From a bacterium (GTDB taxonomy: Bacteria; UBP6; UBA1177): DNA of 64,000 nucleotides. The DNA is taken from positions 122,584 through 186,583 of the forward strand of contig JAEESW010000002.1 of NCBI GenBank assembly GCA_016290135.1. The letters run 5' to 3'. The notes under the pieces were generated by a model. It ran no database searches, was not told the DNA's origin, and saw only the letters and a program-made list of their open reading frames with translations. Shown here piece after piece: positions 7,581 through 59,359 of the stretch (position 1 is the first letter of the stretch; every line of letters starts with the position of its first letter). A program made the translations under genes and the position numbers.

Positions 7581-7588
7581 TTTTCCTC

Positions 7589-21315: not shown

Positions 21316-21321
21316 CCTCCG

Positions 21322-34270: not shown

Positions 34271-36649
34271 TTAAAAAACTGTTATCGAACATCCTTTGCT
34301 TTTCTTTGCAGGTTTGTTTTCGTCAGTATCCTCAGTTTCTTCGGCATTAGTTTCATCTTCAGGCACGAAATCGTCGTCGGAAACCACGTCGTCGTCATCA
34401 AAAACCACGTCGCCGGATTCAGGTTCTTCCTCTTCATTTTCATAATAATAGACAGGCAGCTGCACAGTGCCTGAAGCACCTGTCAAAGTTGTGTATCTGA
34501 GATATAAATCAGACAGCCCCGGACCGCCGTAGTAATCTGCAAAACTGCTCCCGGAAGCAAAATCGTACGGTTCGGAATGAGTATGGTACTTAGCCTGCCA
34601 GATGAGAGAGAGAAACTTGTCCGCATTCAGGACTTTAGCGCTTGCCGGAATACCTTCTGAAATAACAGTGGTGTATTCGACTTCCGGAACAGGAACTTCG
34701 CCTTCTGTGATCTGCGAGATCGTCACATAATCGGTGAATTTCGTGAAATTCCTGTTGTAAAAGGCATCGAAAGCACTTCCGGCAGGAATTTTTCCCTTTA
34801 CGATTATGATAACTTTCGATTGGTCGGCTGAAGCGGCAGCATCGACTATCTTGAAGTTTTCGTTGTCAAGCTGATAGCCGTACTGCGTAACGGGCATGAC
34901 GAAACGCAGCGTCACATCCTCTTCTGTCGGCAGATAGTTTACGATTTCGGCGGTTACTTTTATTGCCGTGCCGTCGCCTCCTGCAAAAATCGACTCTTTG
35001 TTTTCAGAGCCGTGCTGCCAAGAATAGCTGACCCATAAGTTGCCTGCCGGGACTGACTGCATTCCGCGGTTGCTCTTGTTGATCCCGCAGTTTTCGTATC
35101 TTTCACAGGAGTAGTTGTATGAAACCTCGTCATCCGACATCTCGACTCTTCTGAAACCCCAGTAGTCGCCGCTTCCGCTCGTCGCCATTGTTGTCGTCAT
35201 GATGAATTCCATTTTTTCCGGCGCAATGACTCCGGTGTTCGGAATAAGTTCGTCGCCTTTTTCGAAGGTGAAGACTTTGTCGTGGTGAGTGTGACCGGAG
35301 AAATATATCGGCGGAATTTCCTTCTGTGCAATGAATGAAGTGAGCGAAACACCGTTGTTCGATGTCTGTGTTTCATTGAATACCCCGTCGAATACGTCGC
35401 TGTCCCATGCCGACGAGTCGAAGTTCCATTCCTGATCGTCGATTACGCTTACGATGCCGTAGATCTTAGAGAACGATCTGTTCGCATGGTATTTTCCCGT
35501 CCCGTCCTGACCGAGCGGCGTCATGTGACCGAAAACAGCCGCGACATCGTAGTCTTCAAGAATTGTCTGAGCCCAGTTCAGGGTCTTTTCAGCAAGATAA
35601 CCACCCCAGTTCGCCACAGGAGAAGCAGCTGTGTCACCGATTCCGATCTGGTTGCTTGCACGTCTCTGAGGAGTTCCGTCGTATGTGTTGAGCAGAAGGT
35701 AGGTCCTGTTTCTGAAGTTGAATGCGTTGTTCATCGGCCCCAGAAACTTTGCCCAATATTCAAGACCGTCCGATTCGAGAGGCGAGGTCAGATCATCAAC
35801 TTTTGTAAACTGAGCGTATCCGTCGTGGTTGCCGGGGATCGAGAACATCGGAATTTCAAGTTTTGTCATCATGTCGTAAAAGTCGGAGTATTCCTGCTGG
35901 TAGTTTATTCCGTAGGCGATGTCACCGAGCATGATCGAAAAGTTTGTGTCCGCCGAATTCAAATGTGAAAACGTCGCTTTTATGATCCCGAACTGCTGGT
36001 CGTAGTTGAGCAGCGAGTTTTTGGCATAGAACGGATAATTTTCCGGGTTGAAATTCATGTCGTCTGTCTTTTTGCTTAGAAGATCCTCGATCTGAGGGTC
36101 TGCAACGATGAGGAATTTCGCCGGGTCGCTTTCTTCGTAATGAGGAAAGAAAAGGGCGTTTCGAGAGATCATCTCTTCGCCGTCCGTCATTTTTAAAGCG
36201 ATATCGTATTTGGCTTCCGGAAGCAGAATATTGGTGCACACAGAGAGTTTGACAATGTTTTCGCCGATTTTTTCAAGATAGTTAAAATTGGGATTACTGT
36301 AATCAAAACTGTAGCGGGAAATATTAAGGAATTCTGTTCTTCCGCTGTCGTCAAGGCGGATTATTTTCACATATTCGAAAGGCTGGTTTCCATTGTATCT
36401 GAAAATGACTGAAAAGCACGGTTCATCCGGTGTTACTATTGCCGGAAAGCCGATTACTGGATACAGTATTCCGTTTATCGCGGGGTCGAGAATCGCTTTC
36501 GTCTGCATCTGGAACTGATAGTCTTCAAAAACATTAGAATTCTGCGGAAACCGGTTTATCGAAACCATTGATTCTTTAGGCTCTTCGGCGATCAGCGTTG
36601 AACCGAGCAAAAATAAAAGGAAAAAAAGAGCGGTTTTTAATTTTTGCAT
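34271..36649 (-). CDS. Secreted calcineurin-like metallophosphoesterase, large paralog A, ending ...KSKGCSITVF
   Basis: Start at MQKLKTALFF (GGAGGA upstream), signal peptide. Phosphoesterase motifs GDIAYG and GNHDG. C-terminal acidic linker plus GC tail. Confidence 0.55.
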   Translation of the reverse strand: MQKLKTALFFLLFLLGSTLIAEEPKESMVSINRFPQNSNVFEDYQFQMQTKAILDPAINGILYPVIGFPAIVTPDEPCFSVIFRYNGNQPFEYVKIIRLDDSGRTEFLNISRYSFDYSNPNFNYLEKIGENIVKLSVCTNILLPEAKYDIALKMTDGEEMISRNALFFPHYEESDPAKFLIVADPQIEDLLSKKTDDMNFNPENYPFYAKNSLLNYDQQFGIIKATFSHLNSADTNFSIMLGDIAYGINYQQEYSDFYDMMTKLEIPMFSIPGNHDGYAQFTKVDDLTSPLESDGLEYWAKFLGPMNNAFNFRNRTYLLLNTYDGTPQRRASNQIGIGDTAASPVANWGGYLAEKTLNWAQTILEDYDVAAVFGHMTPLGQDGTGKYHANRSFSKIYGIVSVIDDQEWNFDSSAWDSDVFDGVFNETQTSNNGVSLTSFIAQKEIPPIYFSGHTHHDKVFTFEKGDELIPNTGVIAPEKMEFIMTTTMATSGSGDYWGFRRVEMSDDEVSYNYSCERYENCGINKSNRGMQSVPAGNLWVSYSWQHGSENKESIFAGGDGTAIKVTAEIVNYLPTEEDVTLRFVMPVTQYGYQLDNENFKIVDAAASADQSKVIIIVKGKIPAGSAFDAFYNRNFTKFTDYVTISQITEGEVPVPEVEYTTVISEGIPASAKVLNADKFLSLIWQAKYHTHSEPYDFASGSSFADYYGGPGLSDLYLRYTTLTGASGTVQLPVYYYENEEEEPESGDVVFDDDDVVSDDDFVPEDETNAEETEDTDENKPAKKSKGCSITVF

Positions 36650-36739: not shown

Positions 36740-39001
36740 TTACATAACCATTGTCGAGCAGCCTGAACCGCTTTTTTTGCCGGAACCCGAATCCGTACCG
36801 AGATCGTCTTTGTCATCAGAATTGTGATCGCCGGAATCTGTGTCTGTACCGCTATCGTGATCACCGGAACCGGTGTCCGTGCCGTCATCGTCATCGTACC
36901 AGTCGTCACAGCAGCCGTTGTCATAATTTTCTTCGATTTTTGTAGTGAATTCGAGTTTTCCCGAAATCCCGTCGGGGGTCGTGTATCTGAGATTGTAATT
37001 GCTTGAAAATGTTTTCTGCACGATATCGTCCAGAACGATCTCTTCCCCGCCGGCAAAGTCAAAGAGTTGCGGATCCGAGTTCATATATTGGATTTTTACC
37101 TGCCAGATCAGTGATGAAAATTTAAAAGCATTTCTGACCCATAAGTTGTGGACCATCATTTCTGCGACATCTATTTTTTCGGGAAAATCGACAAGAGGAA
37201 TCGGAATTTCTTTCGTATCTGACGGTGAAATCGTCACATAATCGGTGAATTTTGTGAAATTTTTTTCGTAAAAGTCATCAAGAGCGCTTCCGGCCGGTAT
37301 CTTTCCCTTAACGGTCAAAAATACAGTCGAAAGGTCGCCTGAAGCGACTGCATCGGCGAATGTGAAATTCGGGTTGTCGAGTTTATATCCGTATTTTGCA
37401 GCCGGCATGATGAAGCGCAGCGTTACTTCTTCATCGGTCGGCAGCCAGTTCACGATTTCGGCTGTCACGCTTTCTGATGATCCGTCTCCTCCGCTGAAGA
37501 GCGATTCTTTTTCACCTGATCCGCTTTCCCACGAATATTTCACCCACATATTTCCTGCCGGAACCGACTGCATACCGCGTTTTTCAGGGTCGTCAGGCTG
37601 ACAGTTTTCGTATCTTCCGCAGGTGTAGTTGTAAGAAACATCGTTGTATAAAAATTCGGCATTTGAATTTTCTACGCTGATAACTTCGACTTTTCTGAAA
37701 CCCCGGTAGCCCTTTCCGCTTCCCGAGAGAGGTGCCGTGGAGACAAATTCCATCTTTTTGTTTGCAAAGATCCCGCTGTTTTCAACGAGTTCGCTTCCCG
37801 GATCGAACACAGAAACAGAGTCCTGCCGGTCGTGACCTGAAAAATAGACGGGCGGATAGTTTTTATTGGTCAGGATTTTCAGAAATTCTCTTCCGGTTTC
37901 TGATGAGTGCGTTTTGCCGGTCGGTGCAAAATGACCGAAAACCGCGGCGTATTCATAGTTTGAAACGCCTTCAAGCCACTCCAGAGTCTCTGGCTGAAGT
38001 TCGAATCCGGAACTCTCTTCAGAAGCGCGTTTCTGTGCCGTTCCTTCGCTCGTATTGAGCAGAAGATATATTCTTCCGAGCAGGAATGCGTTGTTGGTAG
38101 GACCGATAAACTTCGACCAGTATTCGAGCCCGTCAAATTCTGGAAGAGATGTTGTTCCTCCGTCGTTTGAAGCGAAACGGGTGAGGAGGTCACGCTCGCC
38201 GGGAACCGCAAACATCGGAATTTCCAAATTGAGTGCGAGATCATAAAAGCCGCGGTATTCATTCTGAAAATCAATTCCGCTGACTGCGTTGCCGAGCATT
38301 ACCGCAAAATGGCTGTCGCCGGCATTGAACTGTGAAAAAGCCGCATCAACTATTCCCTTTTGAGGATCTCCGTTTTGACACGGATATTCGCCTGAATTGA
38401 AGTCTAAATCTTCGCTTTGATCGTTTCCGTCTGTCCGAGGACTCGAAAAAACGATGAATTTTGCCGGATCTCTGTATTTGTATTGAGGAAAGAAAACGGC
38501 GTTGCGCGAAATCATCTCCTTTTCGCCTCGAATTTTCAAAGCGATATCGTATCCTGCTTCGGGCAGTTTGACTGGCACGGATATTCCCAGAATCCAGGTG
38601 TCCGGTCCGATCCTGTCAACATACTGATAAAAGTTCTCATAGTGGGTATAGGCAGGATGGAGCGTCAGAAATTCGCTCCTTCCGTTTTCGTCATTCCGGA
38701 AGATTTTTACATATTCGACTTCATAAACTGAAAAATGGACGTCGTGTTCAAGCCTGAAAATAACGGAAAGCGAAGTGTTGTCTGCTACCATCGACGGAAA
38801 ACCGATGACAGGGTATAAAATGCCGTTTATCGGATAATCGTGAATCCCGGCTGTCTGCATCGTCTGTTGGTAGTCTTCAATTGTAAACCGTTCCCCGTAT
38901 TTCTGAGAACTGCGGTTTATCGACAGCATCGATTCGCCGTAAACTTGAAGTGTCAAAAATGATAAAAACAGCAGAAAAAGGAGAAAAAATCGTTTGATCA
39001 T
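36740..39001 (-). CDS. Secreted calcineurin-like metallophosphoesterase, paralog B, ending ...SGCSTMVM
   Basis: Start at MIKRFF (GGAGAG upstream). Collinear similarity to the upstream paralog (SINR...INGILYPVIGFP, GNHD-type motifs). Acidic TD/SGD linker then GC tail. Confidence 0.55.
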   Translation of the reverse strand: MIKRFFLLFLLFLSFLTLQVYGESMLSINRSSQKYGERFTIEDYQQTMQTAGIHDYPINGILYPVIGFPSMVADNTSLSVIFRLEHDVHFSVYEVEYVKIFRNDENGRSEFLTLHPAYTHYENFYQYVDRIGPDTWILGISVPVKLPEAGYDIALKIRGEKEMISRNAVFFPQYKYRDPAKFIVFSSPRTDGNDQSEDLDFNSGEYPCQNGDPQKGIVDAAFSQFNAGDSHFAVMLGNAVSGIDFQNEYRGFYDLALNLEIPMFAVPGERDLLTRFASNDGGTTSLPEFDGLEYWSKFIGPTNNAFLLGRIYLLLNTSEGTAQKRASEESSGFELQPETLEWLEGVSNYEYAAVFGHFAPTGKTHSSETGREFLKILTNKNYPPVYFSGHDRQDSVSVFDPGSELVENSGIFANKKMEFVSTAPLSGSGKGYRGFRKVEVISVENSNAEFLYNDVSYNYTCGRYENCQPDDPEKRGMQSVPAGNMWVKYSWESGSGEKESLFSGGDGSSESVTAEIVNWLPTDEEVTLRFIMPAAKYGYKLDNPNFTFADAVASGDLSTVFLTVKGKIPAGSALDDFYEKNFTKFTDYVTISPSDTKEIPIPLVDFPEKIDVAEMMVHNLWVRNAFKFSSLIWQVKIQYMNSDPQLFDFAGGEEIVLDDIVQKTFSSNYNLRYTTPDGISGKLEFTTKIEENYDNGCCDDWYDDDDGTDTGSGDHDSGTDTDSGDHNSDDKDDLGTDSGSGKKSGSGCSTMVM

Positions 39002-39083
39002 AACTCTCTCCATTCACAAATGGTTTAATATTTTACAGTGAGAAATATTTCTGTCAATTCAGCCGCCGTTTCCAAAAAAAATC

Positions 39084-42838: not shown

Positions 42839-42997
42839 CTATGCTTTCGAGAAATTGTCCTTGCTTACTCCGCAAACCGGGCATACCCAGTCTTCAGGGA
42901 TAGCTTCAAAAGGGGTGCCGGGAGCGATACCGCTGTCGGGATCTCCCACTGCCGGATCATAAACATAACCGCAGATTCCGCATACATACTTGACCAT
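42839..42997 (-). CDS. Rubredoxin (52 aa), absent from the supplied ORF track
   Basis: Translated by hand: [52 protein letters not shown]. It carries both the CxxCG and CPxCG motifs. Confidence 0.8.
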
Positions 42998-43006
42998 AGT
43001 TTCCTC

Positions 43007-44206
43007 CTAATTTCTATTGTTGATCTTTTCTCCGATCCCGCGCCCGAGGTCGAAGCACTGCTTTTTGATTTCTTCAGTCGGAGCATAGAGCGATTTTACG
43101 CTTCCGACCAATTCGCTGCCCATGTCTGTGAGCATCTGCGAAAGGTATTTGATGCTTTCACCGCTCCAGCCGTAGGAACCGAACGCCGCCGCCAAAGGAG
43201 TTTTGAATTTGAGTCCTTTGACGTAGCACATGATATCGGCCATCGACGGGAAGATCTCGTTGTTTATAGTCGGAGAGCCGGCGATGAGAGCCGATGCGTC
43301 AAGCATTTCGGTGGCCACTTCGCTTCTGTCGCACGACTGCAGGAAGAGCGATTTGACCTTGATCCCCTGAGAGACAAGACCGTCTTCGATACAACGGGCC
43401 ATTTGTTCTGTCGAATGCCACATCGAATCGTAGACGATGACCGCTTTTTTATCAGTTCTCCTTGCAGACCATTTGTCGTAAAGACCAAGCATTTTCACGA
43501 AGTTGTCCATATTTCTCCAGACAGGGCCGTGGTCAGGAGCTACGACTTTGAAGGTGAGTCCGCTCGCAGCCACTTTTTTGAGCAGATTCTGCACGAAGGG
43601 GCTGTAGAGCGTGATGATGTTCGCATAGTAGCCTGTCGACATATCAACAAGAAGCAGCCACGGAAGCTCGTCGTCAAAACGCTCGCTCGTGGCAAGATGC
43701 ATTCCGAAAGCGTCCTGACTGAAAAGGACTTCTTCTTCGGCAAGATACGAGAACATGCTGTCGGGCCAGTGGAGCATCTTCGTCTCCATGAATTTCAGCG
43801 TTTTGTTGCCGAGGCTGAGTTCTCCGCCGTCAGCCACAGCTTCGACCTGAAGTTCCGGATAGTATGCCGCAAGAGCACGGACGCCCCCTTTCGAAGCGAA
43901 GATCTTCTCAGGTTTGACTGCATCTGCGATCTTCGGTATTCCGCCGCTGTGATCTGGTTCCGCGTGGTTGGAAACGATGTATTCGATTTTCTTCGGGTCA
44001 ACGACCGAAGCGACTCTTTCAAGAAGTTCGTCTTCAAAACCCTTTTTAACTCCGTCGATGAGCGTGATCTTGTCGGCCAAAACGAGATATGCGTTGTAGG
44101 TCGTGCCCTTTTCAGTCGAATATCCGTGAAAATAACGGATGTTCCAGTCGATCGCGCCTACCCAGTAGACTGAATCGCTGATTTTTATTGCGTTGAGGTT
44201 CGGCAT
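43007..44206 (-). CDS. Flavodiiron protein (FprA / rubredoxin:oxygen oxidoreductase type): metallo-beta-lactamase-like + flavodoxin domains
   Basis: Start set at MPNLNAIKISDSVYWVGA (AGGAG upstream). Di-iron ligand motif HAEPDH-type (NHAEPDHSGG). C-terminal flavodoxin fold. Confidence 0.8.
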   Translation of the reverse strand: MPNLNAIKISDSVYWVGAIDWNIRYFHGYSTEKGTTYNAYLVLADKITLIDGVKKGFEDELLERVASVVDPKKIEYIVSNHAEPDHSGGIPKIADAVKPEKIFASKGGVRALAAYYPELQVEAVADGGELSLGNKTLKFMETKMLHWPDSMFSYLAEEEVLFSQDAFGMHLATSERFDDELPWLLLVDMSTGYYANIITLYSPFVQNLLKKVAASGLTFKVVAPDHGPVWRNMDNFVKMLGLYDKWSARRTDKKAVIVYDSMWHSTEQMARCIEDGLVSQGIKVKSLFLQSCDRSEVATEMLDASALIAGSPTINNEIFPSMADIMCYVKGLKFKTPLAAAFGSYGWSGESIKYLSQMLTDMGSELVGSVKSLYAPTEEIKKQCFDLGRGIGEKINNRN

Positions 44207-44214
44207 TTTTTCTC

Positions 44215-44598
44215 CTACTTTCTGTTTGCCCACAGTCCGTGGATGTTGCAGTATTCACGCGCAATGATTTCGTCGGAAAATTCCATCGGAAATTCCGCGC
44301 TCGGTGCCTCTCCTGGTTTGAGATACTTTCTCATGACGACATCGCCTTTGAGCACTTCGATCCATTCGATGTAGTGGTTGTCCATCATCGGATGAGCCGT
44401 CGAGCCGACAGTTACTTTGATTCCGCCTGCCGTTTTTTCGACTACCGGAACATGTTTTTCAATGGTCTGATCGGCTGTTTTTATGGGCATAAGCTCCATT
44501 TCTTTGCCGCAGCAGACAAGCGTTCCGCCCGCTTCGTGCGAAACAGTTACGATGTTTCCGCAGATCGAGCACTTGTAGACTTCGTTTCTTTTCGTCAT
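44215..44598 (-). CDS. Desulfoferrodoxin (2Fe superoxide reductase)
   Basis: N-terminal desulforedoxin CSICGN...CCGKEM. C-terminal SOR domain. 127 aa. Confidence 0.8.
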   Translation of the reverse strand: MTKRNEVYKCSICGNIVTVSHEAGGTLVCCGKEMELMPIKTADQTIEKHVPVVEKTAGGIKVTVGSTAHPMMDNHYIEWIEVLKGDVVMRKYLKPGEAPSAEFPMEFSDEIIAREYCNIHGLWANRK

Positions 44599-44613
44599 AT
44601 CAGTTCCCCGGAA

Positions 44614-45186
44614 TTACCAGTTAGTGTTGAGAACTTCGAAGTAAGCCTGCGGGTGCTCGCATGCCGGGCATTTTTCGGGAGCTTCTTTGCCGACGTGGAT
44701 GTATCCGCAGTTGAGGCAGCGCCATGTAACTTCGCGGTCTTTCGCGAACATTCCGCTTGCTTCGAGGTCTTTTATGAAAGCGTTGTATCTTTCTTCATGG
44801 TGTTTTTCTGCAACGGCGATCTTTCTGTACATTTCGGCGATGTCGTGGAAGCCTTCTTCGTCTGCGATTCTTGCAAATTCGGGATATGCTTCAGTCCACT
44901 CTTCATGCTCGCCTGCAGCGGCAGCCTTGAGGTTTGCAAGTGTGTCGGAAATCATTCCTGCCGGATATGTCGCGGTGATTTCAAGGTCGCCGCCTTCAAG
45001 GAATTTGAACATTCTCTTTGCGTGTTCCTTTTCCTGATTTGCAGTTTCTTCAAAAATAACAGCTATTTTCTCGAATCCGTCCTTTTTAGCCTTGCTTGCG
45101 AAGTAGTTGTAACGCATTCTTGCCTGAGATTCGCCTGCGAAAGAAGTAAGAAGATTTTTTTCTGTTCTTGTTCCTTTAAGTGACAT
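44614..45186 (-). CDS. Rubrerythrin
   Basis: Start at MSLKGTRTEKNLLTSFAGESQARMRY (GGAGGA upstream). C-terminal rubredoxin-like CLNCG...CPAC. Confidence 0.85.
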   Translation of the reverse strand: MSLKGTRTEKNLLTSFAGESQARMRYNYFASKAKKDGFEKIAVIFEETANQEKEHAKRMFKFLEGGDLEITATYPAGMISDTLANLKAAAAGEHEEWTEAYPEFARIADEEGFHDIAEMYRKIAVAEKHHEERYNAFIKDLEASGMFAKDREVTWRCLNCGYIHVGKEAPEKCPACEHPQAYFEVLNTNW

Positions 45187-45240
45187 GATTTCCTCCATTA
45201 AAATTGAATAAACTAACCATAAACGGTTTAAAAACTGCTA

Positions 45241-45268: not shown

Positions 45269-45413
45269 TTTTTGGAAACGCTTTTCTGTGTTACTGCACG
45301 AACGATCCGCTTCCTTGCAAAAGAGGAGACAGGACTATTGATTTTTTTTCACTTTTAACTAAAATTTTCTGTTTTGTTTCGCTTTTTATCAACTTTTTTT
45401 CAAGAGGTTAGCT

Positions 45414-46274
45414 ATGAAAAAACTTATTTCTTTAACGATCGCACTTTTGACATGTATGCTTTCATTCAATCTGCTTGCAGAATGCACCGGCATCTCTTTT
45501 GATCCGGCTATGTCATTCGGTGAGGCTTACGATGACTACGGCAATGTTACCGGTTATTACCCCAGCAATCTTGAATCGTATGATCTGTCAGGATTCACCA
45601 GTGAAGATCAAGCCGGAATACTTTCCTTTGAATTCTATCCGGAAGATCTTGAAAACGGCAAATGGACTGAGGCTGCTGCAGTCGGAACCTACAATCTTGG
45701 CGCAGGAAACAACACCAACTATTCATCCTGCAACCAGTGCGTAAGAATGTATCACTTTGTTCACAACCCCAATGCAGCTTCAGAAGATGAAGAATGGAAT
45801 AATGACAAACAGTTCTTCCAGCAGGAAGGAACATTGCAGATATTGCACACTGATTTTGTGGCAAATGACCACTACTATTATCACGGGCTTCTTTCCGTCA
45901 AACTTGCCGAAGCCACCGTCGATACATCGACTTGGGTATCTTCATTTGTCGAAGGCGGCGACTGCTACGAAATAGAAAGTGGAGCATGGACAACTTATCC
46001 GGAAGGCACAGAACCGACAGACGATACGACGACCGATCCGACGACTGAGCCGACAACGGATCCGACAACCGATCCGACGACCGATCCGACGACTGAGCCG
46101 ACGACTGAGCCGACGACCGATCCGACGACTGAGCCGACGACCGAGCCGACGACTGAGCCGACTGACAACAGCGACACGGAAGTTCCCGCTGACACCGACG
46201 AGACTCCTGCTGACGACAGTTCGACCCCGGCAGACGAGGAAGATGATGGCGGCTGTGCACTTGTAACGATATAA
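45414..46274 (+). CDS. Secreted protein with YSSCxQC-containing N-terminal domain, Thr/Pro-rich TDPTTEPTT linker and ...DDGGCALVTI tail
   Basis: Signal peptide MKKLISLTIALLTCMLSFNLLA. Coding repeat (TDPTT/TEPTT)n at 46009..46165. GC + 5-residue C-terminus. Confidence 0.5.
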   Translation: MKKLISLTIALLTCMLSFNLLAECTGISFDPAMSFGEAYDDYGNVTGYYPSNLESYDLSGFTSEDQAGILSFEFYPEDLENGKWTEAAAVGTYNLGAGNNTNYSSCNQCVRMYHFVHNPNAASEDEEWNNDKQFFQQEGTLQILHTDFVANDHYYYHGLLSVKLAEATVDTSTWVSSFVEGGDCYEIESGAWTTYPEGTEPTDDTTTDPTTEPTTDPTTDPTTDPTTEPTTEPTTDPTTEPTTEPTTEPTDNSDTEVPADTDETPADDSSTPADEEDDGGCALVTI

Positions 46275-46300
46275 CACACTGATCAGCCTGTTGATTTTTC

Positions 46301-46326
46301 GGGGGTGCTTCGGCACCCCTTTTTTA
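46301..46326 (+). terminator. Rho-independent terminator (GGGGGTGC-TTCG-GCACCCC followed by T7)
   Basis: Perfect GC-rich hairpin plus U-tract 27 nt after the stop. It lies between convergent genes. Confidence 0.7.
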
Positions 46327-47635: not shown

Positions 47636-50600
47636 TTACTGCAAGACGAGCGTCTTGTATTTTCCGCCGAAACAGCTTGAAACGTCATTGATTTTATTTA
47701 AGCATTTTTTGCAGTTTCTGTTGTCGTATTCATCAAAATCCCCTTCTTCGTCGTAAAAGACGATCTCTGACCTGGAGGCAGCGCACTGCACGCTCTGATC
47801 CGATGCAACAGAAAATGTTCTTCCGCTGTTGTATGCTATCTTAAGTTTCGTGCCGGATGCAAAGTTGTGGGTCTCTGCGGCACATGAATGTTCCACATCA
47901 AGGCATATGTTTATGATATTGCAGTCAAAAGTGTGGCTGTGGTGCTCATTTTTAAAAAACACGAAATCGCCTTTGACCGTAAAATTATTCTGATAATTTT
48001 TGACAGCATAAACTGAATCATCCACCTTTTCGACACCGTCGCAGACCGAGGGGATCTCGGCATTCAGAGTCAGAGTGTAATCGTCTGCAGCAAGGCAGCC
48101 AGGCGCATCGTAAGAGACTCTCAGCGCATTGTTCCTGAAATCGAGCACCGCACTGTCGGCAGTTTCGTTGGAAGAAAGCAGGCAGTAGAGGAATGCGTTT
48201 GCGGAAGATCGAGTAAACTTTTTGACATAGCTGCTGCCGTCAGAAAAAGTTATTTTGATCTTCGCATGTCTGTACTGCCCGGGGGTGTCGAACTGAAGGC
48301 TTGATGAAAAGATAGTCTCCAGTGCAGATACGGGATTTTGATAACTTTTGCTTGAAACAAGTTTTTCTGTGTTGTCTTGAAGGACTCCGTTAAGGTATCT
48401 GCCGTAGAGATAAACTTCTGCCTTCGAGATTTCGGCCATTTTTCCTGATTTCGCCGTGACTCCGATCTTGAACAAGTCTCCCGAATGGAGGAACTGCCCT
48501 TTATGCGCATCGAGGGAAAGATCGAGATCGGCCATGTCAAAAAATTTGAATTCGGCCACATCCGTCCTTTTTGTAGTGGAAGAACTGCTTTCGACCGAGA
48601 CTGTGTAATAGCCGCTTCCCGAAAGCACCGAAGGGAGTATGTCGCTGTTGTTCGAACAATTCGCCGAAAAACCCGAATTCCCCTGTTTTGTTATCGTGCA
48701 TTTGTAATCGACTCCGCTTTTCGTTTCCCACCAGAGATAGGATTTGCTGTTGCTCGTAAAGAATTTTTCATTCAAATTTACTCTTAACGGTTCGACCGCA
48801 GCAAAATCCATCTGTATCGCAAGTGACCTTTCCGAACGGTTCCCGACCTCGTCGAAGGCCGTTATTGTGAAATTGTTGAGGCCGTGGACGCTCCCTTCCA
48901 GACTGCAGTAAAATTTGTTGCAGTTTCCCTGATATTCACCTGATTCCAGATTCGGCACATAGAAACAGCTTTTTATCCAGCCGGCTTCAGACGATTGTAT
49001 AAAAACACTCAAATCTTCAGAGGCGGAGAAATTGTCTTCATAACTAAGCAGGATCTGCGGATTTCTTGGCCCTACTATCAGATATCCTCCGTTGTTGCAG
49101 TTGGGTGAATCGAGGCACGGCTTTAGCATCGGCCAAGTCTCCACACATTCGGTAAAAACAGAATTTTCACCGTCGTAGGCGATGAAACTCGGCGGACGAC
49201 TGTCTATAAAGACAACTCCGAGAGGTTCGCTGAAATCACTGTTCGAGCAGTTGCCGACGGAATCACACACCGAAACAGAGCCCAGACATGCCACGACTTC
49301 ATCATCATTCACTGTCGTGAGCAGATTGAAAAAATCGAGACTCTCCTGCGCCGGAACATATCCTTCTCTCTTCTCCTGTGAGAAAGTACCGCCCAAAACA
49401 CCGCATGAGACCTTGAGTGCCCACTTGTCGATATCTTCATCAGGATCTACGAGCGAGACTGTAAAATAGTTTTTGCTGGTGACACTGTTTTTCAAAAGGA
49501 CACGGCCGTCCGATTCGACCCTGACGACAGGAACTTCCGGCGGAGTCGTATCGATCCTGAAAGAACCGTAGAGAGTAGAGCGGTTCCCCGCATGGTCGGC
49601 TGCCGAAAGGGTGATCTTGTAAAGTCCGTCAGCCGCACTGCCGGAATATCCGGCATCGGAGAGCATTTCCGCGAACTGTCCGGAAGAAAGCGCACATTCA
49701 CCGGCAGAACAGCTTTCGTATGCCTCTTCAAAGACGACGACCTCCTCCTCTTCCCACTTGGAGATCGTAAGTTTGATATTTTCGATCATACTGTCTGAAA
49801 CGTTCCATGAAACGGCGGCATCTTCGATCTTTACCGTTCCTTCAGGAGAGTCGAGATGCAGGAGAGGTTTTTTGCTGTCGAGAAAAACAGTCACCTCCTT
49901 TTCACTGACATTGTAGGCGATATCCTGCGCAGAAACAGAGAACAGAAGCTGCTTTTCTATCTGGACACCGTCATCGCCGGCATACTCCGCAAGCATGGCA
50001 AATTCACGGATTTCCCCCGAAAGACCGCCGTTTTCAATGTTCTGAGGCTCGATCCTTTTCACTCTGAAGACAAAATCGGGATCTTTACTTTTCAGCGAGA
50101 CGGAATCCAGATCGCTAAAAGTGCCCTCGCGCGGAGAAACTCTGAATTTAAGGAGAAAAGCCCCTGCAAAATGAGGGATCAGCCCTTGCTGAGGATCATA
50201 CTCCGCAAATCCGCTTTTCGTGTAAAAACCGAGATCTCCCGAAACTTCGGCTTCGTCAGCATTTTCTGTTCCGAAAAGGTCGTTGAAACCGATAATTTCC
50301 AATTTCGGGCCTGCTGAATCGACCGGCACCGGAACGCTTTCAGCAGGAAAGAGGAACTGGTCGGAATTTGATGCGATGTTTCCTACGACACTGCCCAGCT
50401 GATTAAAGACAGTTTTGTTGAAAGTACTTGAGAGGAATCTTTTTACGGAAAGGGCGTAGTAATACCTGAAAAAATTGGCGTCGATCGCTGTTTTTCCCCC
50501 GTCTTCGCCGAAAAAGAGCTGCACTTCACCGTTTTTTCCGTCAAAGACCGTGTCTCTGTAGTCTTCATGCAGAAGCCTCAGAATATTGGAGACATCGTAG

Positions 50601-52501
50601 ATCCCGTGTTCCGAGCCTATATCCGTCTCCATAAAATAGGCAAGATACTCAAGGCCTGCAAGCAGGATGAAATATTTTGTCCTGCTGTCTGCGGCATTTG
50701 TATTCCAGGGCTCTTCATTCCACTCAAAAGCGTGGCTGAGATGCTGCAAAAGATGTTCTGAAACAGTGCTCCACAACTCTTCATCCGGAACATTTCCGGA
50801 ATTTCTGCGGCTTGTGAAAATATAACTCCCGACTGTAGTAAGCGGTGTGACAACGATCGCGTCATCATTCACAGGGACGAACACTGCCGACAAAGTGCCG
50901 TTGAACCGTTTCGTTCCGCCGTTTTCCGAAACGACAGGTTCGTAGTTCCCGCCTGAAACAGTGACGGTGCACACCTGCCCCAGCTTGACTTTGATCTCGT
51001 TTCCCGCCGAAGGAAGATCATCGCTTTTCCTGCTGACCGCAGCATCACCGCAAGAGACCGAAACACTCTCGAAATCATTGAGAGGATTCGTTACGAACGC
51101 TTTTATCCCGACCGAAACAGTGTTCCTGCTGTAAAACGGGAACGATGCTTTATACTTTTTCGTATTTACCGTGGTTTCACATTCAAGAATGTTCTTTCCG
51201 TCCGGAAGTTTTTCGGTATCCACCACCGCTTTATACTGATAGTTGGAACTGCTCATGTTTTCCGTCTTATATCCTTCAAGAGAGCAGGAAAGATCTTCGA
51301 CTGCGTATCTTTTGTGCGAGGCCTCGACCTTTATATCGATGCTGTTTCTCGCCGGCGAATCCTCGCTTCCGGTAGGATCCAGCGTTCCGTGCCTGTAAAA
51401 AACGGCGCTGACGGAAGGGGCGTCGTTGTTGACTGTTATCGTTTTCACGGCACTCTCGAGAGTTATGCCGTTGCTTGCCTCACAGCGGATGACGACCTCT
51501 TTTTCCTCTTCGATATTTTCAGTAGTGAAACTCCCTTTAAAAAATGCCTTTTCTTCATCTTTGTCGGCAAGTTTTTCACCGTCTGCAAAACAGTTCAGCG
51601 TTACGATCATGTTTTCAGGTCCCGCTTTCGCTTCGACAGCGACTGCACCGCTGAAATAGTCCGGCTCGGCTCCCTTGTTTCCTTCAGGATAAACTTCTAT
51701 CTCTATCGAGACTCTGCCTTTTTCTGCATCGGCTCCTCCTAAAAAGGCGGCATCGGAATTCCTTATCTTTTCACTCCACTCTTTCAGTTCCGCAGCCGAA
51801 AACTTTCCGCTCACCTCACTCAGAAAATCGCCGAGCAGCCCTTTCATAAAAGCCGCACCGACAGATGCGCTCCCGAATTTTGCATACGTGGAACCGTTGA
51901 TGATGTTGTCGTCCTCAAGATCGCCATAGAGCAGATCCAGCAGATTTTCGGTAGAAAACTGAGTCTCAGGCTGAGTAGCATTAGCGGCCGAAACTGTCCC
52001 GGCGATCTTTGCAAAAGCCTGCTGCCACAACCAGCGTTTCGTAGCATCGGTAAGGGAACTTTGAAGTTCCGGGAAGGCGTCTCCGGCGATATCGAGATAT
52101 TCGAACCATTCGCTACAAGAAGTCTCCGACCTGTATTTCTCAATAAAGGTAGAAAGAAAATCGACAACGGCGACAATATTTTTTTCATTCACCGCCTTGA
52201 CAGTGCCTTCACTGCATCCGTTCCACGCAACATCTACATCCGACGAGACCAGGGCTACTGTCCCTCCGCAGACTTTAACCTTGAGTTCTCCGATACTGCG
52301 CACCGCTCCAAAGCTGACAGATCCGCTCTCGTCAGTCTTTCCGGACAAAACGGTCCCTTCTCCGCCTGAAACTTCCACAGACGCGTTTTTCTGCACGGAG
52401 AGCACCGTCAGATCGAACTCAAGTATGCCGCTGTCAGGCCTTTTGCCGTCGCAGGAAAAAAGAACAGCTCCAAGGATAAAAAAACAAAAAAACTTTTTCA
52501 T
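47636..52501 (-). CDS. Giant (1621 aa) lipoprotein / surface protein, last gene of the T4SS-like operon
   Basis: Lipobox GAVLFSC. No recognisable catalytic domain. ATGA overlap with the upstream OM beta-barrel gene. Confidence 0.5.
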   Translation of the reverse strand: MKKFFCFFILGAVLFSCDGKRPDSGILEFDLTVLSVQKNASVEVSGGEGTVLSGKTDESGSVSFGAVRSIGELKVKVCGGTVALVSSDVDVAWNGCSEGTVKAVNEKNIVAVVDFLSTFIEKYRSETSCSEWFEYLDIAGDAFPELQSSLTDATKRWLWQQAFAKIAGTVSAANATQPETQFSTENLLDLLYGDLEDDNIINGSTYAKFGSASVGAAFMKGLLGDFLSEVSGKFSAAELKEWSEKIRNSDAAFLGGADAEKGRVSIEIEVYPEGNKGAEPDYFSGAVAVEAKAGPENMIVTLNCFADGEKLADKDEEKAFFKGSFTTENIEEEKEVVIRCEASNGITLESAVKTITVNNDAPSVSAVFYRHGTLDPTGSEDSPARNSIDIKVEASHKRYAVEDLSCSLEGYKTENMSSSNYQYKAVVDTEKLPDGKNILECETTVNTKKYKASFPFYSRNTVSVGIKAFVTNPLNDFESVSVSCGDAAVSRKSDDLPSAGNEIKVKLGQVCTVTVSGGNYEPVVSENGGTKRFNGTLSAVFVPVNDDAIVVTPLTTVGSYIFTSRRNSGNVPDEELWSTVSEHLLQHLSHAFEWNEEPWNTNAADSRTKYFILLAGLEYLAYFMETDIGSEHGIYDVSNILRLLHEDYRDTVFDGKNGEVQLFFGEDGGKTAIDANFFRYYYALSVKRFLSSTFNKTVFNQLGSVVGNIASNSDQFLFPAESVPVPVDSAGPKLEIIGFNDLFGTENADEAEVSGDLGFYTKSGFAEYDPQQGLIPHFAGAFLLKFRVSPREGTFSDLDSVSLKSKDPDFVFRVKRIEPQNIENGGLSGEIREFAMLAEYAGDDGVQIEKQLLFSVSAQDIAYNVSEKEVTVFLDSKKPLLHLDSPEGTVKIEDAAVSWNVSDSMIENIKLTISKWEEEEVVVFEEAYESCSAGECALSSGQFAEMLSDAGYSGSAADGLYKITLSAADHAGNRSTLYGSFRIDTTPPEVPVVRVESDGRVLLKNSVTSKNYFTVSLVDPDEDIDKWALKVSCGVLGGTFSQEKREGYVPAQESLDFFNLLTTVNDDEVVACLGSVSVCDSVGNCSNSDFSEPLGVVFIDSRPPSFIAYDGENSVFTECVETWPMLKPCLDSPNCNNGGYLIVGPRNPQILLSYEDNFSASEDLSVFIQSSEAGWIKSCFYVPNLESGEYQGNCNKFYCSLEGSVHGLNNFTITAFDEVGNRSERSLAIQMDFAAVEPLRVNLNEKFFTSNSKSYLWWETKSGVDYKCTITKQGNSGFSANCSNNSDILPSVLSGSGYYTVSVESSSSTTKRTDVAEFKFFDMADLDLSLDAHKGQFLHSGDLFKIGVTAKSGKMAEISKAEVYLYGRYLNGVLQDNTEKLVSSKSYQNPVSALETIFSSSLQFDTPGQYRHAKIKITFSDGSSYVKKFTRSSANAFLYCLLSSNETADSAVLDFRNNALRVSYDAPGCLAADDYTLTLNAEIPSVCDGVEKVDDSVYAVKNYQNNFTVKGDFVFFKNEHHSHTFDCNIINICLDVEHSCAAETHNFASGTKLKIAYNSGRTFSVASDQSVQCAASRSEIVFYDEEGDFDEYDNRNCKKCLNKINDVSSCFGGKYKTLVLQ

Positions 52502-53124
52502 ACTTTCCCCCAGTTATAGTAATTCACAAAGAATGACGCACCGAAAAATCCGAACAGATCAAGCGAATTGTCATGCGGAGACCACTTGTAAAGCACCTGT
52601 GCCGAGAGTATTATCCACTCCCATACTCTGAACTGGAGATCGAACCCGGCCGCGATGACGCCGTTTACGCAAGCATAGTCATCCTTTCTGTAACTCGCGA
52701 CTTTCAGACCTCCTTCCGCAATAAATTCGATATTTGAAAATGTTTCGACTTTGAATCCTCCTCCTGCAACGATATGCGGCGAGAAAAAAGTCCCCGGAAA
52801 GAGATTGTATCTTGCAAGGACGAGCGTCTGGACCCGCCAGTAATCAAAGTATTCTTTTCCTTTTATATCCTGAAATTCCGCTTTCCTCGAAGTGTCCCCC
52901 ACCCGCGTGAATGAAGGCTGCAGACCGATGTCGAAGTTGTCGGTGAGACCAAAAAACATATTGAGACCGGCATTCCAGCTTGCATATACGACAGTGGTCT
53001 TATTGTCCGTTTTAAGCGAAAAAGGAAAAAAACCGCCGCCGCCTATATTTACCTGGAGCTCCCCTTCTTCTGCGGGAAGAGCAAAAGAAAACATAAATAA
53101 GATCAGAACTATGACTTTTTTCAT
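52498..53124 (-). CDS. Outer-membrane beta-barrel protein (OmpW/OMP_b-brl-like)
   Basis: Start at MKKVIVLILF with signal peptide. Alternating amphipathic strands; aromatic-rich C-terminus. Confidence 0.4.
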   Translation of the reverse strand: MKKVIVLILFMFSFALPAEEGELQVNIGGGGFFPFSLKTDNKTTVVYASWNAGLNMFFGLTDNFDIGLQPSFTRVGDTSRKAEFQDIKGKEYFDYWRVQTLVLARYNLFPGTFFSPHIVAGGGFKVETFSNIEFIAEGGLKVASYRKDDYACVNGVIAAGFDLQFRVWEWIILSAQVLYKWSPHDNSLDLFGFFGASFFVNYYNWGKV

Positions 53125-53125
53125 G

Positions 53126-54175
53126 CTATTCCAGATAAACAAAGAAAGATGTTCCTGCCGGAACTCTGTATTCCTGCCTCATTTTGTTAGCCTCTTCCTG
53201 CTTTGCCAGTTCCGAAGCGGCCGGATTCACGGTGTTCGCGGCGGTCGTTCCCGCAGTACTGCCCGCACTTCCGGCAAGTCTTGTGACCACGGCTCCAGCC
53301 GTTTTGGTAAATCCCTGCTTTACTTCCGATTTTATATTCTCATCGGCGATATCGGTAACTTCCGATTCTATTCCCGGATCCTTTCCCGAAACAGCAAACC
53401 CTTTGACCGAAAATTCGTCATTCCCGATGATGAGTTTTGAAAAGGCAAGCTGCGTCCTCTTGTTGACGAAACTTTTGGCCGACCCGAAGAATCTCGCCCC
53501 TTTCGGGATCCCGCCTGCTTCCTCGAGAACAGTCGCAACGACCGTTGACTGCGCAGTCGAACGTATCGAAAAATCGAGTTTGACCTTGACTTTGACATCG
53601 TGCAGAGCAAATATTTTTTCTTTTCCGTCCGCACCTTTCCTCCCTTTGACGAACACACCGCCGCCTGGATTTTCTCCGCCGGGAACGAAGTGTCTCTTTC
53701 TCCCTGTCTGACTGCCGCCTGCAGCCGCAGCATCGCTAAGTTTGGCATAGGCTTCAAGGATCTCTCTGTCTTTCTCCTCGTTTCTGTTTCTTCTCTTCAC
53801 CGCAGGATTTCTTGAGGGGACAGGCGCTCTCTTCACATCTTCTTCTTTCACTTCCGTCTCAAAATTTTTTCTGTGTTTCGCATTCATCGCCGATTTTATA
53901 TCTCCCACGACTCTGCCGCGTGCCAGCTCGCTGAAGTCATTGAATCCGGCTTCACCGCTATCGCCGGCTTCCGTTCCGCCGCCCTTTTTGAAGAGAGCCG
54001 CAGCAGATAGTGCAAGGAGAAGAAAAAGAACCGAAAGAGAGGCGAAAAATATGACTTTCCTGCGCACAGCAGAATATTTAGTTTTCCTTTCTTCACACTG
54101 AAAGGAGAGCTTGTTTTCATCCTTACCGCTTTCCGAGAGGATCTCAAGCGGCGACTTTTCCTTTTCTTCTCTCAA
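53126..54175 (-). CDS. VirB10/TrbI-like T4SS component
   Basis: Basic cytoplasmic N-terminus, single TM, Pro/Lys-rich spacer, C-terminal beta-domain ending ...YRVPAGTSFFVYLE (TrbI-like). Confidence 0.5.
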   Translation of the reverse strand: MREEKEKSPLEILSESGKDENKLSFQCEERKTKYSAVRRKVIFFASLSVLFLLLALSAAALFKKGGGTEAGDSGEAGFNDFSELARGRVVGDIKSAMNAKHRKNFETEVKEEDVKRAPVPSRNPAVKRRNRNEEKDREILEAYAKLSDAAAAGGSQTGRKRHFVPGGENPGGGVFVKGRKGADGKEKIFALHDVKVKVKLDFSIRSTAQSTVVATVLEEAGGIPKGARFFGSAKSFVNKRTQLAFSKLIIGNDEFSVKGFAVSGKDPGIESEVTDIADENIKSEVKQGFTKTAGAVVTRLAGSAGSTAGTTAANTVNPAASELAKQEEANKMRQEYRVPAGTSFFVYLE

Positions 54176-55119
54176 AACGACACCTTAAGTTCAAGTTTGC
54201 GCTTTTTTCCGGCGCTTTCGTTCACTTCGATTATGTATTCCCTGGAATAGTCTTCGTCGCTTATTTTAAAGGCTATACCGCCGCTTACTATCTCATCGAA
54301 CTGCATCGAGAATTTGTCGATGTGATACTGCGCATTATCGATCTCTACTTTTCCCCCTTTTGTCGAATAGATCTTCACCGATTCGATGTGGAAACGCTGT
54401 CTGTAACGGTTTTTCACCGAAAAATTGACCGTGACGAGAGCATCTTTACCGATTTTGCAGATGCGGTCGCTGCGCAGAAAAACGAGTTCTTCCTCGGTGC
54501 GTGCCGAATAACTGCTGCACTGGAAAAATTCGCTGAAAGATTTCGCCATCATCCCTATCATGCTTTTATCTATCTCTTTTTTTATCTCCTTCATCCTCTT
54601 CTCATACTTCCCTTCGAGCTCTTTCCTCAACATTTCCAGATGTTTATTGACCGCCTTATTCGAAGTTTCCCATTCGGGATACGAAAAAATTATCCTGTTG
54701 CTCGCCTCTTCGGAAGGACGTATGACGAAATTGAAAATGAAGGCCTGTCCCGAATTTATCTTGAACTGAACATTGGAACTGAGCCCGTACATCAGAGCCT
54801 CTTCAGGCGCCTCGTTGAACATGAGTCCCCACACTTTCATCTTCAGAGGCTCAGTTTCGACCTCGATCTTGAGAAGTCCGGCGTCTCCGACTGTCGGAGT
54901 TTCCGTGAGTGAAATGTTTTCCGGGAATTCAAAGACGAACACCTCTCCTAAAGCGATGTTCACTGTCCTGTAGATCACAGTGTCGCTGTTAGTGATCGTG
55001 ATGACGGCGACTTTTTCGGTGATCGGGATGAATTTTGCTTTTTCTTCTTCCCTGTCAAGATCTCTGCCGAACACGCCAAACACATCAAATAAAGCTAATA
55101 AGATCAGAAGTTTTTTCAT
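54172..55119 (-). CDS. VirB9/TrbG-like periplasmic/OM T4SS component (tentative)
   Basis: Signal peptide, roughly 300 aa beta-rich protein, positioned between the VirB8-like and VirB10-like genes with ATGA overlaps. Confidence 0.35.
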   Translation of the reverse strand: MKKLLILLALFDVFGVFGRDLDREEEKAKFIPITEKVAVITITNSDTVIYRTVNIALGEVFVFEFPENISLTETPTVGDAGLLKIEVETEPLKMKVWGLMFNEAPEEALMYGLSSNVQFKINSGQAFIFNFVIRPSEEASNRIIFSYPEWETSNKAVNKHLEMLRKELEGKYEKRMKEIKKEIDKSMIGMMAKSFSEFFQCSSYSARTEEELVFLRSDRICKIGKDALVTVNFSVKNRYRQRFHIESVKIYSTKGGKVEIDNAQYHIDKFSMQFDEIVSGGIAFKISDEDYSREYIIEVNESAGKKRKLELKVSF

Positions 55120-55856
55120 TCTGCACGCTCTTTTTCATCTTCAATGAGATATTCTTTTCCGTTTTCTGTAAGATAGGCCCGAAGTTCTCTGAAATCTTCG
55201 AAACTCTTTCCCGTGTAGAAATCGACAAGAAGCCCGTCGGGAGAGAGTTCCAGCGACACCGGAACAACAAGGAGGAGCGCCGAAAACCAGACTAAACTTT
55301 TCCTCTTTTCGTTTTCACCCGAATAATCGACGGCATTCCCGAAAGTCATCTCTCCCAGACCTTCGACAGTCAGCGATGACCCGACAGAAAAGCTCCCTTT
55401 TACGACTTTGAGTTTCGTGAGTGAAAACTTTGTCTCAAAATTCTTGTTTTTCCATGTGTCTATCTTTTCTTTGTGGACCGACTTGTCAAGCAGGATCTGC
55501 CTGAATTTCGGAGTCAGCATATTGTAGGCTTCTTTAAGATCCTCGTCGATATTGGGGCTCACTCCGTCAAATTTGCCGATGAAATCAGAAATGAACCGAT
55601 GGACTCTTACCAGATTGGTAGAAGTCTCGAGCGTTTCAGGACCATGAAAGACGATCCTTTTTCCCTCTTTGTCGAATGCGATGACGGGAGTCGGCCTCAT
55701 TGCGGCAGACCATGCAAAAAGAAGCGCTGCCAAAGCGATGAAAAACATCATCAGGCAGAAGATCAGGGCGAGTATGCGGAAAGACCTCCGCATTCTTTCA
55801 ATATCGCGATACTTTATTGTATCGAAAAAATCTGAAGCGTCATTTTTTCTCATCAT
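55116..55856 (-). CDS. VirB8-like bitopic T4SS component (tentative)
   Basis: Short cytoplasmic N-terminus, one TM (ILALIFCLMMFFIALAALLFAW) and a roughly 190-aa periplasmic domain. Operon position. Confidence 0.4.
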   Translation of the reverse strand: MMRKNDASDFFDTIKYRDIERMRRSFRILALIFCLMMFFIALAALLFAWSAAMRPTPVIAFDKEGKRIVFHGPETLETSTNLVRVHRFISDFIGKFDGVSPNIDEDLKEAYNMLTPKFRQILLDKSVHKEKIDTWKNKNFETKFSLTKLKVVKGSFSVGSSLTVEGLGEMTFGNAVDYSGENEKRKSLVWFSALLLVVPVSLELSPDGLLVDFYTGKSFEDFRELRAYLTENGKEYLIEDEKERAE

Positions 55857-59085: not shown

Positions 59086-59359
59086 TTTTTACTCCGATCA
59101 GATCCCTCTGCTGGCGGCAGTAGCGGATCTTTCCACCGCCGGACATTCTCAGAACAAAGATCCACCAATCCGGCGAACCCGAAAAAATTTTTTCACGGAT
59201 AAGAAAAGTCACCGTAAAGACCACAGCCGGGATAACAAGAAGAAGAAAGATGTCCTTCAAGACAGCACCTGAAAAAAAGAAGAGTGTCATGACCGCCGCC
59301 TGCCCTTTGTCGACAAAAGTCTGCTTTGTTCCCAAAACTGAAAAAACTTTCATATCCAA
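59069..59359 (-). CDS. VirB3-like small membrane protein (tentative)
   Basis: 96 aa, one or two TM helices. Overlaps the start of the VirB4-like gene, as VirB3-VirB4 pairs often do. Confidence 0.4.
   Translation of the reverse strand: MDMKVFSVLGTKQTFVDKGQAAVMTLFFFSGAVLKDIFLLLVIPAVVFTVTFLIREKIFSGSPDWWIFVLRMSGGGKIRYCRQQRDLIGVKNEEHL

Follow-up and report, generated by a model that had tools for sequence, protein, structure and literature searches.

A short Gly-Cys tail on exported proteins that looks like a transmembrane-less form of cysteine-containing C-terminal sorting signals

How might an exported bacterial protein be held at the cell surface when its signal peptide contains no valid lipobox and its C-terminus contains no transmembrane (TM) helix? 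This question is raised by the gene at 45414..46274 (+) in a 64,000-nucleotide stretch of DNA, hereafter the window, from a bacterium of the UBP6 lineage (assembly GCA_016290135.1, contig JAEESW010000002.1, positions 122,584 to 186,583 of the forward strand). The product of this gene ends in Gly-Cys followed by five residues and the stop codon, an ending that is referred to here as GC+5. On the sequence comparisons described below, GC+5 looks like a previously undescribed TM-less short form of the MYXO-CTERM class of Cys-containing C-terminal sorting signals. We consider it probable, with moderate confidence, that GC+5 is a short CaaX-like, Cys-based C-terminal anchor signal on a three-module surface protein made up of a disulfide-containing barrel, a disordered stalk and the ending G-C-[SA]-ΦΦΦΦ-COOH, where Φ is a hydrophobic residue.

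The gene is a complete open reading frame (ORF) encoding 286 residues followed by a TAA stop, and the succession of signal peptide, domain, linker and GC+5 ending was found to be as the earlier sequence-only reading of this DNA had described it. The first 22 residues (45414..45479) form a signal peptide for Sec export, of the signal peptidase I type, for which the sequence and the orthologue alignment predict cleavage after Ala22 (LLA|EC), a site that is conserved among the orthologues; the N-terminus reads MKKLISLTIALLTCMLSFNLLA|ECTG. A lipobox-like LLTC at residues 11-14 was considered and rejected as it lies inside the hydrophobic h-region and its Cys14 is not conserved among the orthologues, and the signal therefore does not qualify as that of a lipoprotein. 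The alignments place an all-beta domain of 177 residues at 45480..46010, with four conserved cysteines (C24, C106, C109 and C184 of the precursor) and the motifs GTYxLG, NxNYxxCxQC, FQQxGTL and FVxxGxCYE; it includes the stretch ...GTYNLGAGNNTNYSSCNQCVRMYHF... The domain is followed by a low-complexity stalk of 79 residues (46011..46247) composed of Thr, Pro, Asp and Glu with TDPTT/TEPTT repeats, which is encoded by a 12/48-nucleotide tandem array (46014..46162). The stalk is modelled with a predicted local distance difference test (pLDDT) score below 50, and the linkers of the orthologues range from 72 to 92 residues in length. The protein closes with the proposed anchor or sorting signal GGCALVTI (46248..46271), consisting of Gly279-Gly280-Cys281 and five hydrophobic residues, and its C-terminus reads ...EEDDGGCALVTI before the TAA. 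Judged from its flanks the gene is monocistronic, being bounded by a sigma-70-like promoter candidate (TTGATT-16-TAAAAT; 45338..45365, +), which is a consensus match only, and by a strong hairpin followed by a T run that resembles an intrinsic terminator (46301..46320, +).

The tail was found to be strongly conserved. All nine orthologues of the 45414 protein end in [GS]GC[AST]L[VL]x[IL]-COOH, with G280, C281 and L283 being invariant, and their linkers cannot be aligned. Among the orthologues the tail (the last eight residues) has a pairwise identity of 0.70 and is better conserved than the domain (0.52); the value for the linker is 0.31. Within the window, endings of the form G-C-x5-stop occur in four of the 48 predicted ORFs against 0.056 expected from composition (Poisson P=4e-7), and all four of the proteins carry signal peptides. 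The three further tail proteins are unrelated to the 45414 protein and each combines a signal peptide with an acidic linker. They are a Cys-rich exported protein of 286 residues without a Pfam or NCBIfam match (17691..18551, -; tail SDGCSMLFI), an exported metallophosphoesterase of 792 residues (34271..36649, -; tail KKSKGCSITVF) and a 757-residue paralogue of the latter (36740..39013, -; tail KKSGSGCSTMVM).

A total of 120 tails were pooled from all the proteins gathered. Exactly five residues follow the tail Cys in 107 of them, while the Cys is the fifth residue from the end in ten, the fourth in two and the seventh in one; a basic residue after the Cys was found in none of the 120. In the 80 unique tails of this C+5 length, the residue before the Cys is Gly in 78 and the one after it is Ser or Ala in 77; the chain closes with Leu, Ile or Phe in 77, and the remainder is hydrophobic. 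Lys-Lys and Ser/Gly are frequent just upstream, and the consensus derived from these 80 tails is KK[SK][SG]S-G-C-[SA]-ΦΦΦΦ-COOH. A second class of tails reads GC[GS]C[ST]xxF/I. More than 100 sequences, drawn from no fewer than two unrelated families and as low as 36% in identity, keep the tail at a fixed length, and it is not a chance ending. Readthrough or recoding of the stop codon into a hidden TM segment was examined as well and rejected: the stops are TAA or TGA, often with further stops or a terminator after them, and no TM or Arg segment lies in frame downstream.

What the tail may do is suggested by the proteins that lack it. Among 154 members of the family to which the 45414 domain belongs, 81 were found to have a lipobox but no tail and 22 the tail but no lipobox, the latter with signals of the signal peptidase I type; no member combines the two (Fisher p=1e-8, calculated from counts that are not phylogenetically independent). 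In lipobox members, the lipobox Cys is separated from the first domain by mostly polar sequence with a median length of 90 residues, and the protein terminates a median of 3 residues beyond the last domain. In tail members, the polar stretch from the last domain to the tail Cys has a median length of 85 residues. The stalk always sits between the Cys and the fold, whichever end carries the Cys. Both kinds of ending occur side by side within a single genome (L011), where three adjacent paralogues have a common two-domain core (5787..7160 and 7264..8460 share 55% identity over 343 residues). The middle paralogue has the lipobox LFLASC|GGGSD and a tail-less end, and both of its neighbours have signals of the signal peptidase I type and end in KKSSGCALVTL and KKSSGCSLSLI.

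A lipobox member of the family is also present in the window itself. The ORF at 63312..64000 (+), which is cut by the window end with its reading frame still open, encodes a lipoprotein signal, a (TD)n stalk (63372..63626; DNA array 63414..63607) and a beta-barrel domain starting at 63627 that contains ...TYDLTEGYNASYSSCAQCIIVYED... The lipobox FVSC ends in Cys20 (63369..63371) and is preceded by a Lys-containing n-region and an h-region, as expected of a lipoprotein; the signal FFFFVSC|GSDDD reads in full MKNFSIIVVLIFSFFFFVSC|GSDDD, and the same features were observed in the homologue P0079. The sequence-only reading had taken the two domains to be paralogous, with unlike low-complexity linkers (TDPTT/TEPTT repeats in one and (TD)n in the other), and both observations are upheld. 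The domains share 34% identity over 53 residues (BLASTP, E=1e-6), and a profile of the 45414 orthologues (n=8) gave the 63312 frame as the sole other match among the six-frame ORFs of the window (E=2.5e-8). The alignment extends across the entire domain, including the N-terminal Cys and the CxxC.

It had also been expected that the 63312 paralogue would end in a GC tail, the lack of which had been named as a refuting outcome, and this expectation failed. P0079, which is the closest full-length relative of the paralogue with 63% identity and an alignment reaching the last residue of the window, ends in ...EPVENGSCLVIQNTTLNI at 28 residues beyond the window end point, with neither a linker nor a tail, and a similar tail-less ending was found in the fragment P0010. 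This fragment has 81 residues and lies on a metagenome contig of 1.9 kb (L013), the left end of which (1..125) does not continue the paralogue frame and is probably an assembly chimera; its C-terminal part and stop codon are intact. The missing tail in the relatives of the paralogue does not refute the architecture, since the paralogue is tethered by its N-terminal lipobox Cys instead. The 63312 protein (lipobox Cys and linker) and the 45414 protein (linker and C-terminal Cys tail) are mirror-image arrangements. Of the shuffling of family, linker and tail modules at the cell surface that had been proposed, the widespread module, the hypervariable stalks and the transferable tail are retained, and only the sharing of the tail by the paralogue is given up.

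In distant metallophosphoesterase homologues the tail gives way to a different Cys signal. Of 87 homologues retrieved for the 34271..36649 protein, about 80 keep the tail, down to 36% identity. The more distant homologues (about 36-41% identity) have the ending GC[GS]C[ST]xxF/I, a pattern that includes the MYXO-CTERM signature GCGC, and the most distant one (P0252) ends in GCGGCC followed by a TM segment and RRRRR and reaches the MYXO-CTERM model TIGR03901 with 20.1 bits against a cutoff of 20. A further anchor type was observed in another distant homologue (P0251), which ends in a TM segment and RREKKE and lacks a Cys throughout the 40 C-terminal residues shown. A 1146-residue surface protein with DUF11 repeats was found beside members of the domain family at two loci of the same lineage (L009 816..4256, - and L011 534..3974, -). 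It ends in KKKGGCAVTEIENDFT, a TM segment and RRE (KKKGGC-AVTEI-ENDFT-TM-RRE), a full tripartite Cys signal in which the first five residues after the Cys (AVTEI) resemble the short tail, and it matches JDVT-CTERM weakly (16.1 bits against a cutoff of 27). The exclusive choice of anchor, the mirror geometry and the substitution by a known Cys signal together point to an anchor role for the tail, as far as can be judged from sequences.

The prokaryotic C-terminal sorting signals covered in 10.1101/2023.06.07.544157 and PMC11980579, namely LPXTG, PEP-CTERM, PGF-CTERM, GlyGly-CTERM, MYXO-CTERM and their relatives, are all tripartite, with a signature motif, a TM helix and a basic cluster. GC+5 resembles MYXO-CTERM (TIGR03901) in its position at the extreme C-terminus of Sec-exported proteins, in its invariant Gly-Cys signature (the distant short tails read GCGCS and the generic MYXO-CTERM motif is GCGC), in the disordered low-complexity region that precedes it and in its occurrence on many unrelated proteins per genome. 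It differs from MYXO-CTERM in having five (sometimes three to six) residues after the Cys and no TM helix, in the absence of an Arg-rich C-terminal cluster, as the 45414 tail ends in ...ALVTI, and in its hosts, which are uncultured non-myxobacterial lineages. An invariant Cys in a short C-terminal signature is also found in JDVT-CTERM, in Synerg-CTERM and in CGP-CTERM, but these signals are all tripartite whereas GC+5 has neither the TM helix nor the Arg cluster. Since GC+5 looks like a signature of the MYXO-CTERM class without the helix and the Arg cluster, it is formally a CaaX-like box outside the cytoplasm.

The likeness to a CaaX box lies in the Cys being a few residues from the C-terminus, in the aliphatic residues after it and in the Lys-rich stretch that is often found upstream, as in the tail ...KKKSGCSVTVI; human RhoA ends in ...KKKSGCLVL. 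However, the Cys of GC+5 is sixth from the end (107 of the 120 tails) and that of the CaaX box is fourth, GC+5 has an invariant Gly before the Cys and Ser or Ala after it, and the proteins that carry GC+5 have signal peptides and are extracytoplasmic, unlike the cytosolic substrates of CaaX processing. To our knowledge, no prenyltransferase acts on the extracytoplasmic side of a bacterial membrane. Compared with lipobox lipoproteins (Lgt/LspA/Lnt), the G-C-S of GC+5 is similar to positions -1, +1 and +2 of a lipobox, a polar tether separates the Cys from the folded domain, and one domain family uses either the lipobox or GC+5 and never both. The two signals differ in that GC+5 is at the opposite end of the protein, has no Leu at -3 and has as its hydrophobic element the five residues after the Cys, whereas the lipobox has an h-region of 10-15 residues before it. 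Full-text literature searches found no description of a C-terminal lipobox or of a prokaryotic CaaX-like signal, an absence from the literature that is not proof, and a TM-less short sorting signal is not described in 10.1101/2023.06.07.544157 or PMC11980579.

The published model for MYXO-CTERM involves Sec export, an Lgt-like enzyme that lipidates the Cys, a CPBP protease (MrtX) that carries out the cleavage, and a disordered region adjoining the signal (PMC11980579; 10.1101/2023.06.07.544157), with Lgt being the leading candidate for the lipidation (PMC11980579). Along similar lines, the 45414 product would be exported by Sec and cut by signal peptidase I after Ala22, and its domain would fold in the periplasm. 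Cys281 would then be modified, most likely by a lipid, as is proposed for MYXO-CTERM and as happens at the cysteines of lipoboxes and CaaX boxes, and the last five residues (ALVTI) might be trimmed by a protease of the CPBP/Rce1 type. Rce1 removes the aaX residues of lipidated CaaX boxes. It belongs to the same CPBP family as the myxosortase MrtX (10.1101/2023.06.07.544157; PMC11980579). Finally, the protein would be displayed on the outer membrane through its C-terminus, with the stalk of about 80 residues serving as a spacer, and the 63312 paralogue would arrive at the same end state from the opposite end by way of its lipobox Cys, (TD)n stalk and domain. The presence of an outer membrane in the host cell is shown by a TonB-dependent receptor at 27173..29353 in the window and by a TolC-like OEP on a related contig (L003). 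The chemistry at the Cys, the trimming of the tail, the enzymes and the final location are what we infer here.

Several points weigh against the anchor reading. The main difficulty is that five residues cannot span a membrane, and unlike in MYXO-CTERM there is no obvious hold on the precursor at the inner membrane while it is being modified. The window and the other loci examined (64 kb and scattered loci) yielded no gene for a CPBP protein, for an Lgt-like enzyme or for any other enzyme that might be a candidate. The four tail proteins of the window match no CTERM sorting-domain model at E<=1 and do not reach the TIGR03901 cutoff, the lipobox and tail counts are drawn from related sequences as stated above, and the lipidation of MYXO-CTERM proteins is itself still only proposed (PMC11980579). 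In the nine gene contexts inspected, no CPBP or other peptidase gene adjoins the tail genes. A multi-TM ORF at 12777..13421 was tried as a CPBP candidate and rejected as it has no CPBP motifs.

A more specific version of the anchor reading is put forward only tentatively, as we regard it as possible and somewhat doubtful. GC+5 would here be a prokaryotic extracytoplasmic CaaX-type box and a third route of lipid anchoring beside the lipobox and the tripartite signals, with the Cys being lipidated without a TM helper and the tail being trimmed by a CPBP/Rce1-like protease. Such a box would link MYXO-CTERM to the eukaryotic CaaX signal, and several uncultured bacterial lineages would each employ it on dozens of proteins per genome.

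A different and unlikely explanation is that the tail is a recognition tag. A C-terminal processing protease of the PDZ type (Prc/CtpA-like) or a system for outer-membrane translocation would recognise its free hydrophobic C-terminus, and the tag would govern the maturation, turnover or secretion of a protein that is set free and not anchored. Hydrophobic C-terminal residues are typical of the ligands of PDZ domains and of Tsp/Prc substrates, and the tails are hydrophobic with Leu, Ile or Phe as the last residue. The tail is also too short for a membrane anchor, and MYXO-CTERM and GlyGly-CTERM proteins are known to depend on the type II secretion system and to be partly released (PMC11980579). 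A tag of this kind nevertheless leaves the invariant Gly-Cys and the constant long stalk before the tail unexplained, as a released protein would not need a spacer, and it accounts neither for the mutual exclusion of lipobox and tail nor for the substitution by MYXO-CTERM.

Slightly less probable again is a covalent link of the tail Cys to a protein or to the cell wall, formed either by a disulfide bond with a partner in the outer membrane or S-layer or by sortase-like transpeptidation at Gly|Cys. An invariant Cys with Gly before it would suit this chemistry, and a stalk with a terminal attachment suits any covalent tether. However, every transpeptidase-type signal that we know of carries a TM helix and a basic cluster, both of which are absent from GC+5, and no partner or sortase-like gene was found linked to the tail genes in any locus examined. 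Cleavage within short signature motifs is indeed a property of sortase and exosortase-type systems (10.1101/2023.06.07.544157), but the interchange of the tail with lipoboxes and MYXO-CTERM points to a lipid. The view that the tail is functionless, being a chance ending, a decayed MYXO-CTERM remnant or an annotation or recoding artefact that hides a longer C-terminus, can draw on its resemblance to the start of a tripartite signal cut short and is highly improbable, being effectively excluded by the conservation of the tail above that of the domain and at a fixed length in the more than 100 sequences noted above, by the chance probability of 4e-7 in the window and by stops that are genuine, the in-frame sequence beyond them containing neither a TM nor an Arg segment.

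If the anchor reading is true, a Gly-Cys signature with five hydrophobic residues would suffice as a signal, and the helix and the basic cluster would be dispensable. GC+5, which substitutes for lipoboxes and MYXO-CTERM, would then be the bacterial counterpart of CaaX outside the cytoplasm, and could provide a small transplantable tag for tracing the enzyme that modifies cysteines of the MYXO-CTERM type. The rule of a signal peptide together with [GS]-C-[SA]-Φ4-stop would further make it possible to annotate the surface proteomes of little-known lineages from the rumen and the environment, including UBP6.

The domain carried by the 45414 protein was found to belong to a large family. The sequence-only reading had proposed a search for further members and a structure prediction. 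An exhaustive profile search against 1.84 billion cluster representatives returned 581 related cluster representatives at E<=1e-3, of which 166 reach E<=1e-10. Tandem repetition is frequent, with many of the family members having two to five copies and one sequence giving 29 matched stretches, and some of the domains are fused to other modules such as an 'S8 family serine peptidase'. N-terminal lipoproteins are in the majority. The positions conserved across the family are the N-terminal Cys, GTYDLG, NxNYxTCxxC, FQxSGTL, LxEVT and PVxGGxCxEI, and the four cysteines of the domain probably form two disulfides. The AlphaFold2 model, based on an alignment of 45 sequences, is a confident all-beta structure (pLDDT 96; predicted template modelling score, pTM, 0.89).

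We did not find a known family or fold for this domain in the resources searched. Foldseek with the model gave no match at E<=1e-3, a sequence profile search of the PDB likewise gave no significant match to any solved fold, and scans of five window proteins with Pfam and NCBIfam found no model for either the domain or the tail. In the same scans of 45 diverse members, only isolated sub-threshold matches were observed (Riean_0653 in two of the 45; DUF6252, NigD_C and Spiralin in one each). No curated cutoff was reached for the named beta-barrel lipoprotein domains (NF052634 Riean_0653, DUF6252, NigD_C, TbpB/LbpB-type, avidin/YceI-like), from which the family differs by its specific four-Cys pattern with CxxC. 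The domain is thus a widespread surface-protein module outside every curated family, and its members define a large beta-barrel lipoprotein domain family without a Pfam or NCBIfam model. It may be a displayed binding module, a role that we suggest with low confidence. Paralogues of the family also occur in tandem arrays (L011 4061..9772, where one gene is broken by a run of N, and L009 4368..7140). In some members of these arrays two barrels are joined by a Cys-rich CxxCxGKxCGxDGCGGxCGxGCG linker, which is reminiscent of myxobacterial Cys-rich repeats.

A protein identical to the 45414 product was found on four public contigs, including one of 165 kb in the metagenome-assembled genome (MAG) GCA_016648615.1. 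The orthologues come from ruminant-gut MAGs labelled 'bacterium', and one relative belongs to 'bacterium UBP6_UBA1209', of an unclassified candidate phylum; a literature search on UBP6 found no genome analysis. Tail genes were observed on contigs of 35, 41, 43-44, 47-48 and 62% G+C, near-complete genomes included, and the near-complete assemblies encountered comprise GCA_942492635.1 and the ENA contigs ctg38521c and ctg9565l; this wide spread indicates that the signal is not confined to one lineage. The gene neighbourhoods of the 45414 orthologues are not conserved and consist of unrelated housekeeping genes.

In the window, the 45414 gene lies just downstream of an oxygen-defence set (42865..45198, -) with a rubredoxin, a flavodiiron protein, a desulfoferrodoxin and a rubrerythrin, which fits an anaerobic gut bacterium. 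Several long Arg/Ser-rich or Cys/Arg-rich ORFs at 45898..46316 and 63296..63780 arise when the linker repeats are read in alternative frames or in antisense, and are artefacts rather than genes. The tail gene at 17691..18551 has immediately upstream of it a lipid or aryl-polyene-like set (18703..25452, -) comprising an LPLAT acyltransferase, a Ketoacyl-synt_2 protein, an O-methyltransferase and a BadF/BcrA-type activase, with the acyltransferase (18703..19542) being next to the tail gene. Elsewhere in the window, this type of gene set is represented by a fusion of AMP-ligase, acyl carrier protein and acyltransferase and by a type III polyketide synthase-like gene (145..2607, + and 29593..30666, +). 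Directly downstream of both metallophosphoesterases with the GC+5 tail is a lipoprotein gene (32472..34259, -), the product of which has the lipobox ILVAC|SGGNS, an acidic tether and a Gly-rich C-terminal region, and shows a weak match to the Leptospira LIC10774 surface-protein family. Finally, the operon at 47636..59353 (-) encodes a lipoprotein of 1621 residues, five small envelope ORFs without family matches, a VirB4/TraG-like ATPase (56740..59085; PF19044 1e-15, PF03135 7e-5) and a weakly VirB8-like protein (55116..55856), and it resembles a type IV secretion or conjugation-type system that includes a giant lipoprotein of an unusual kind.

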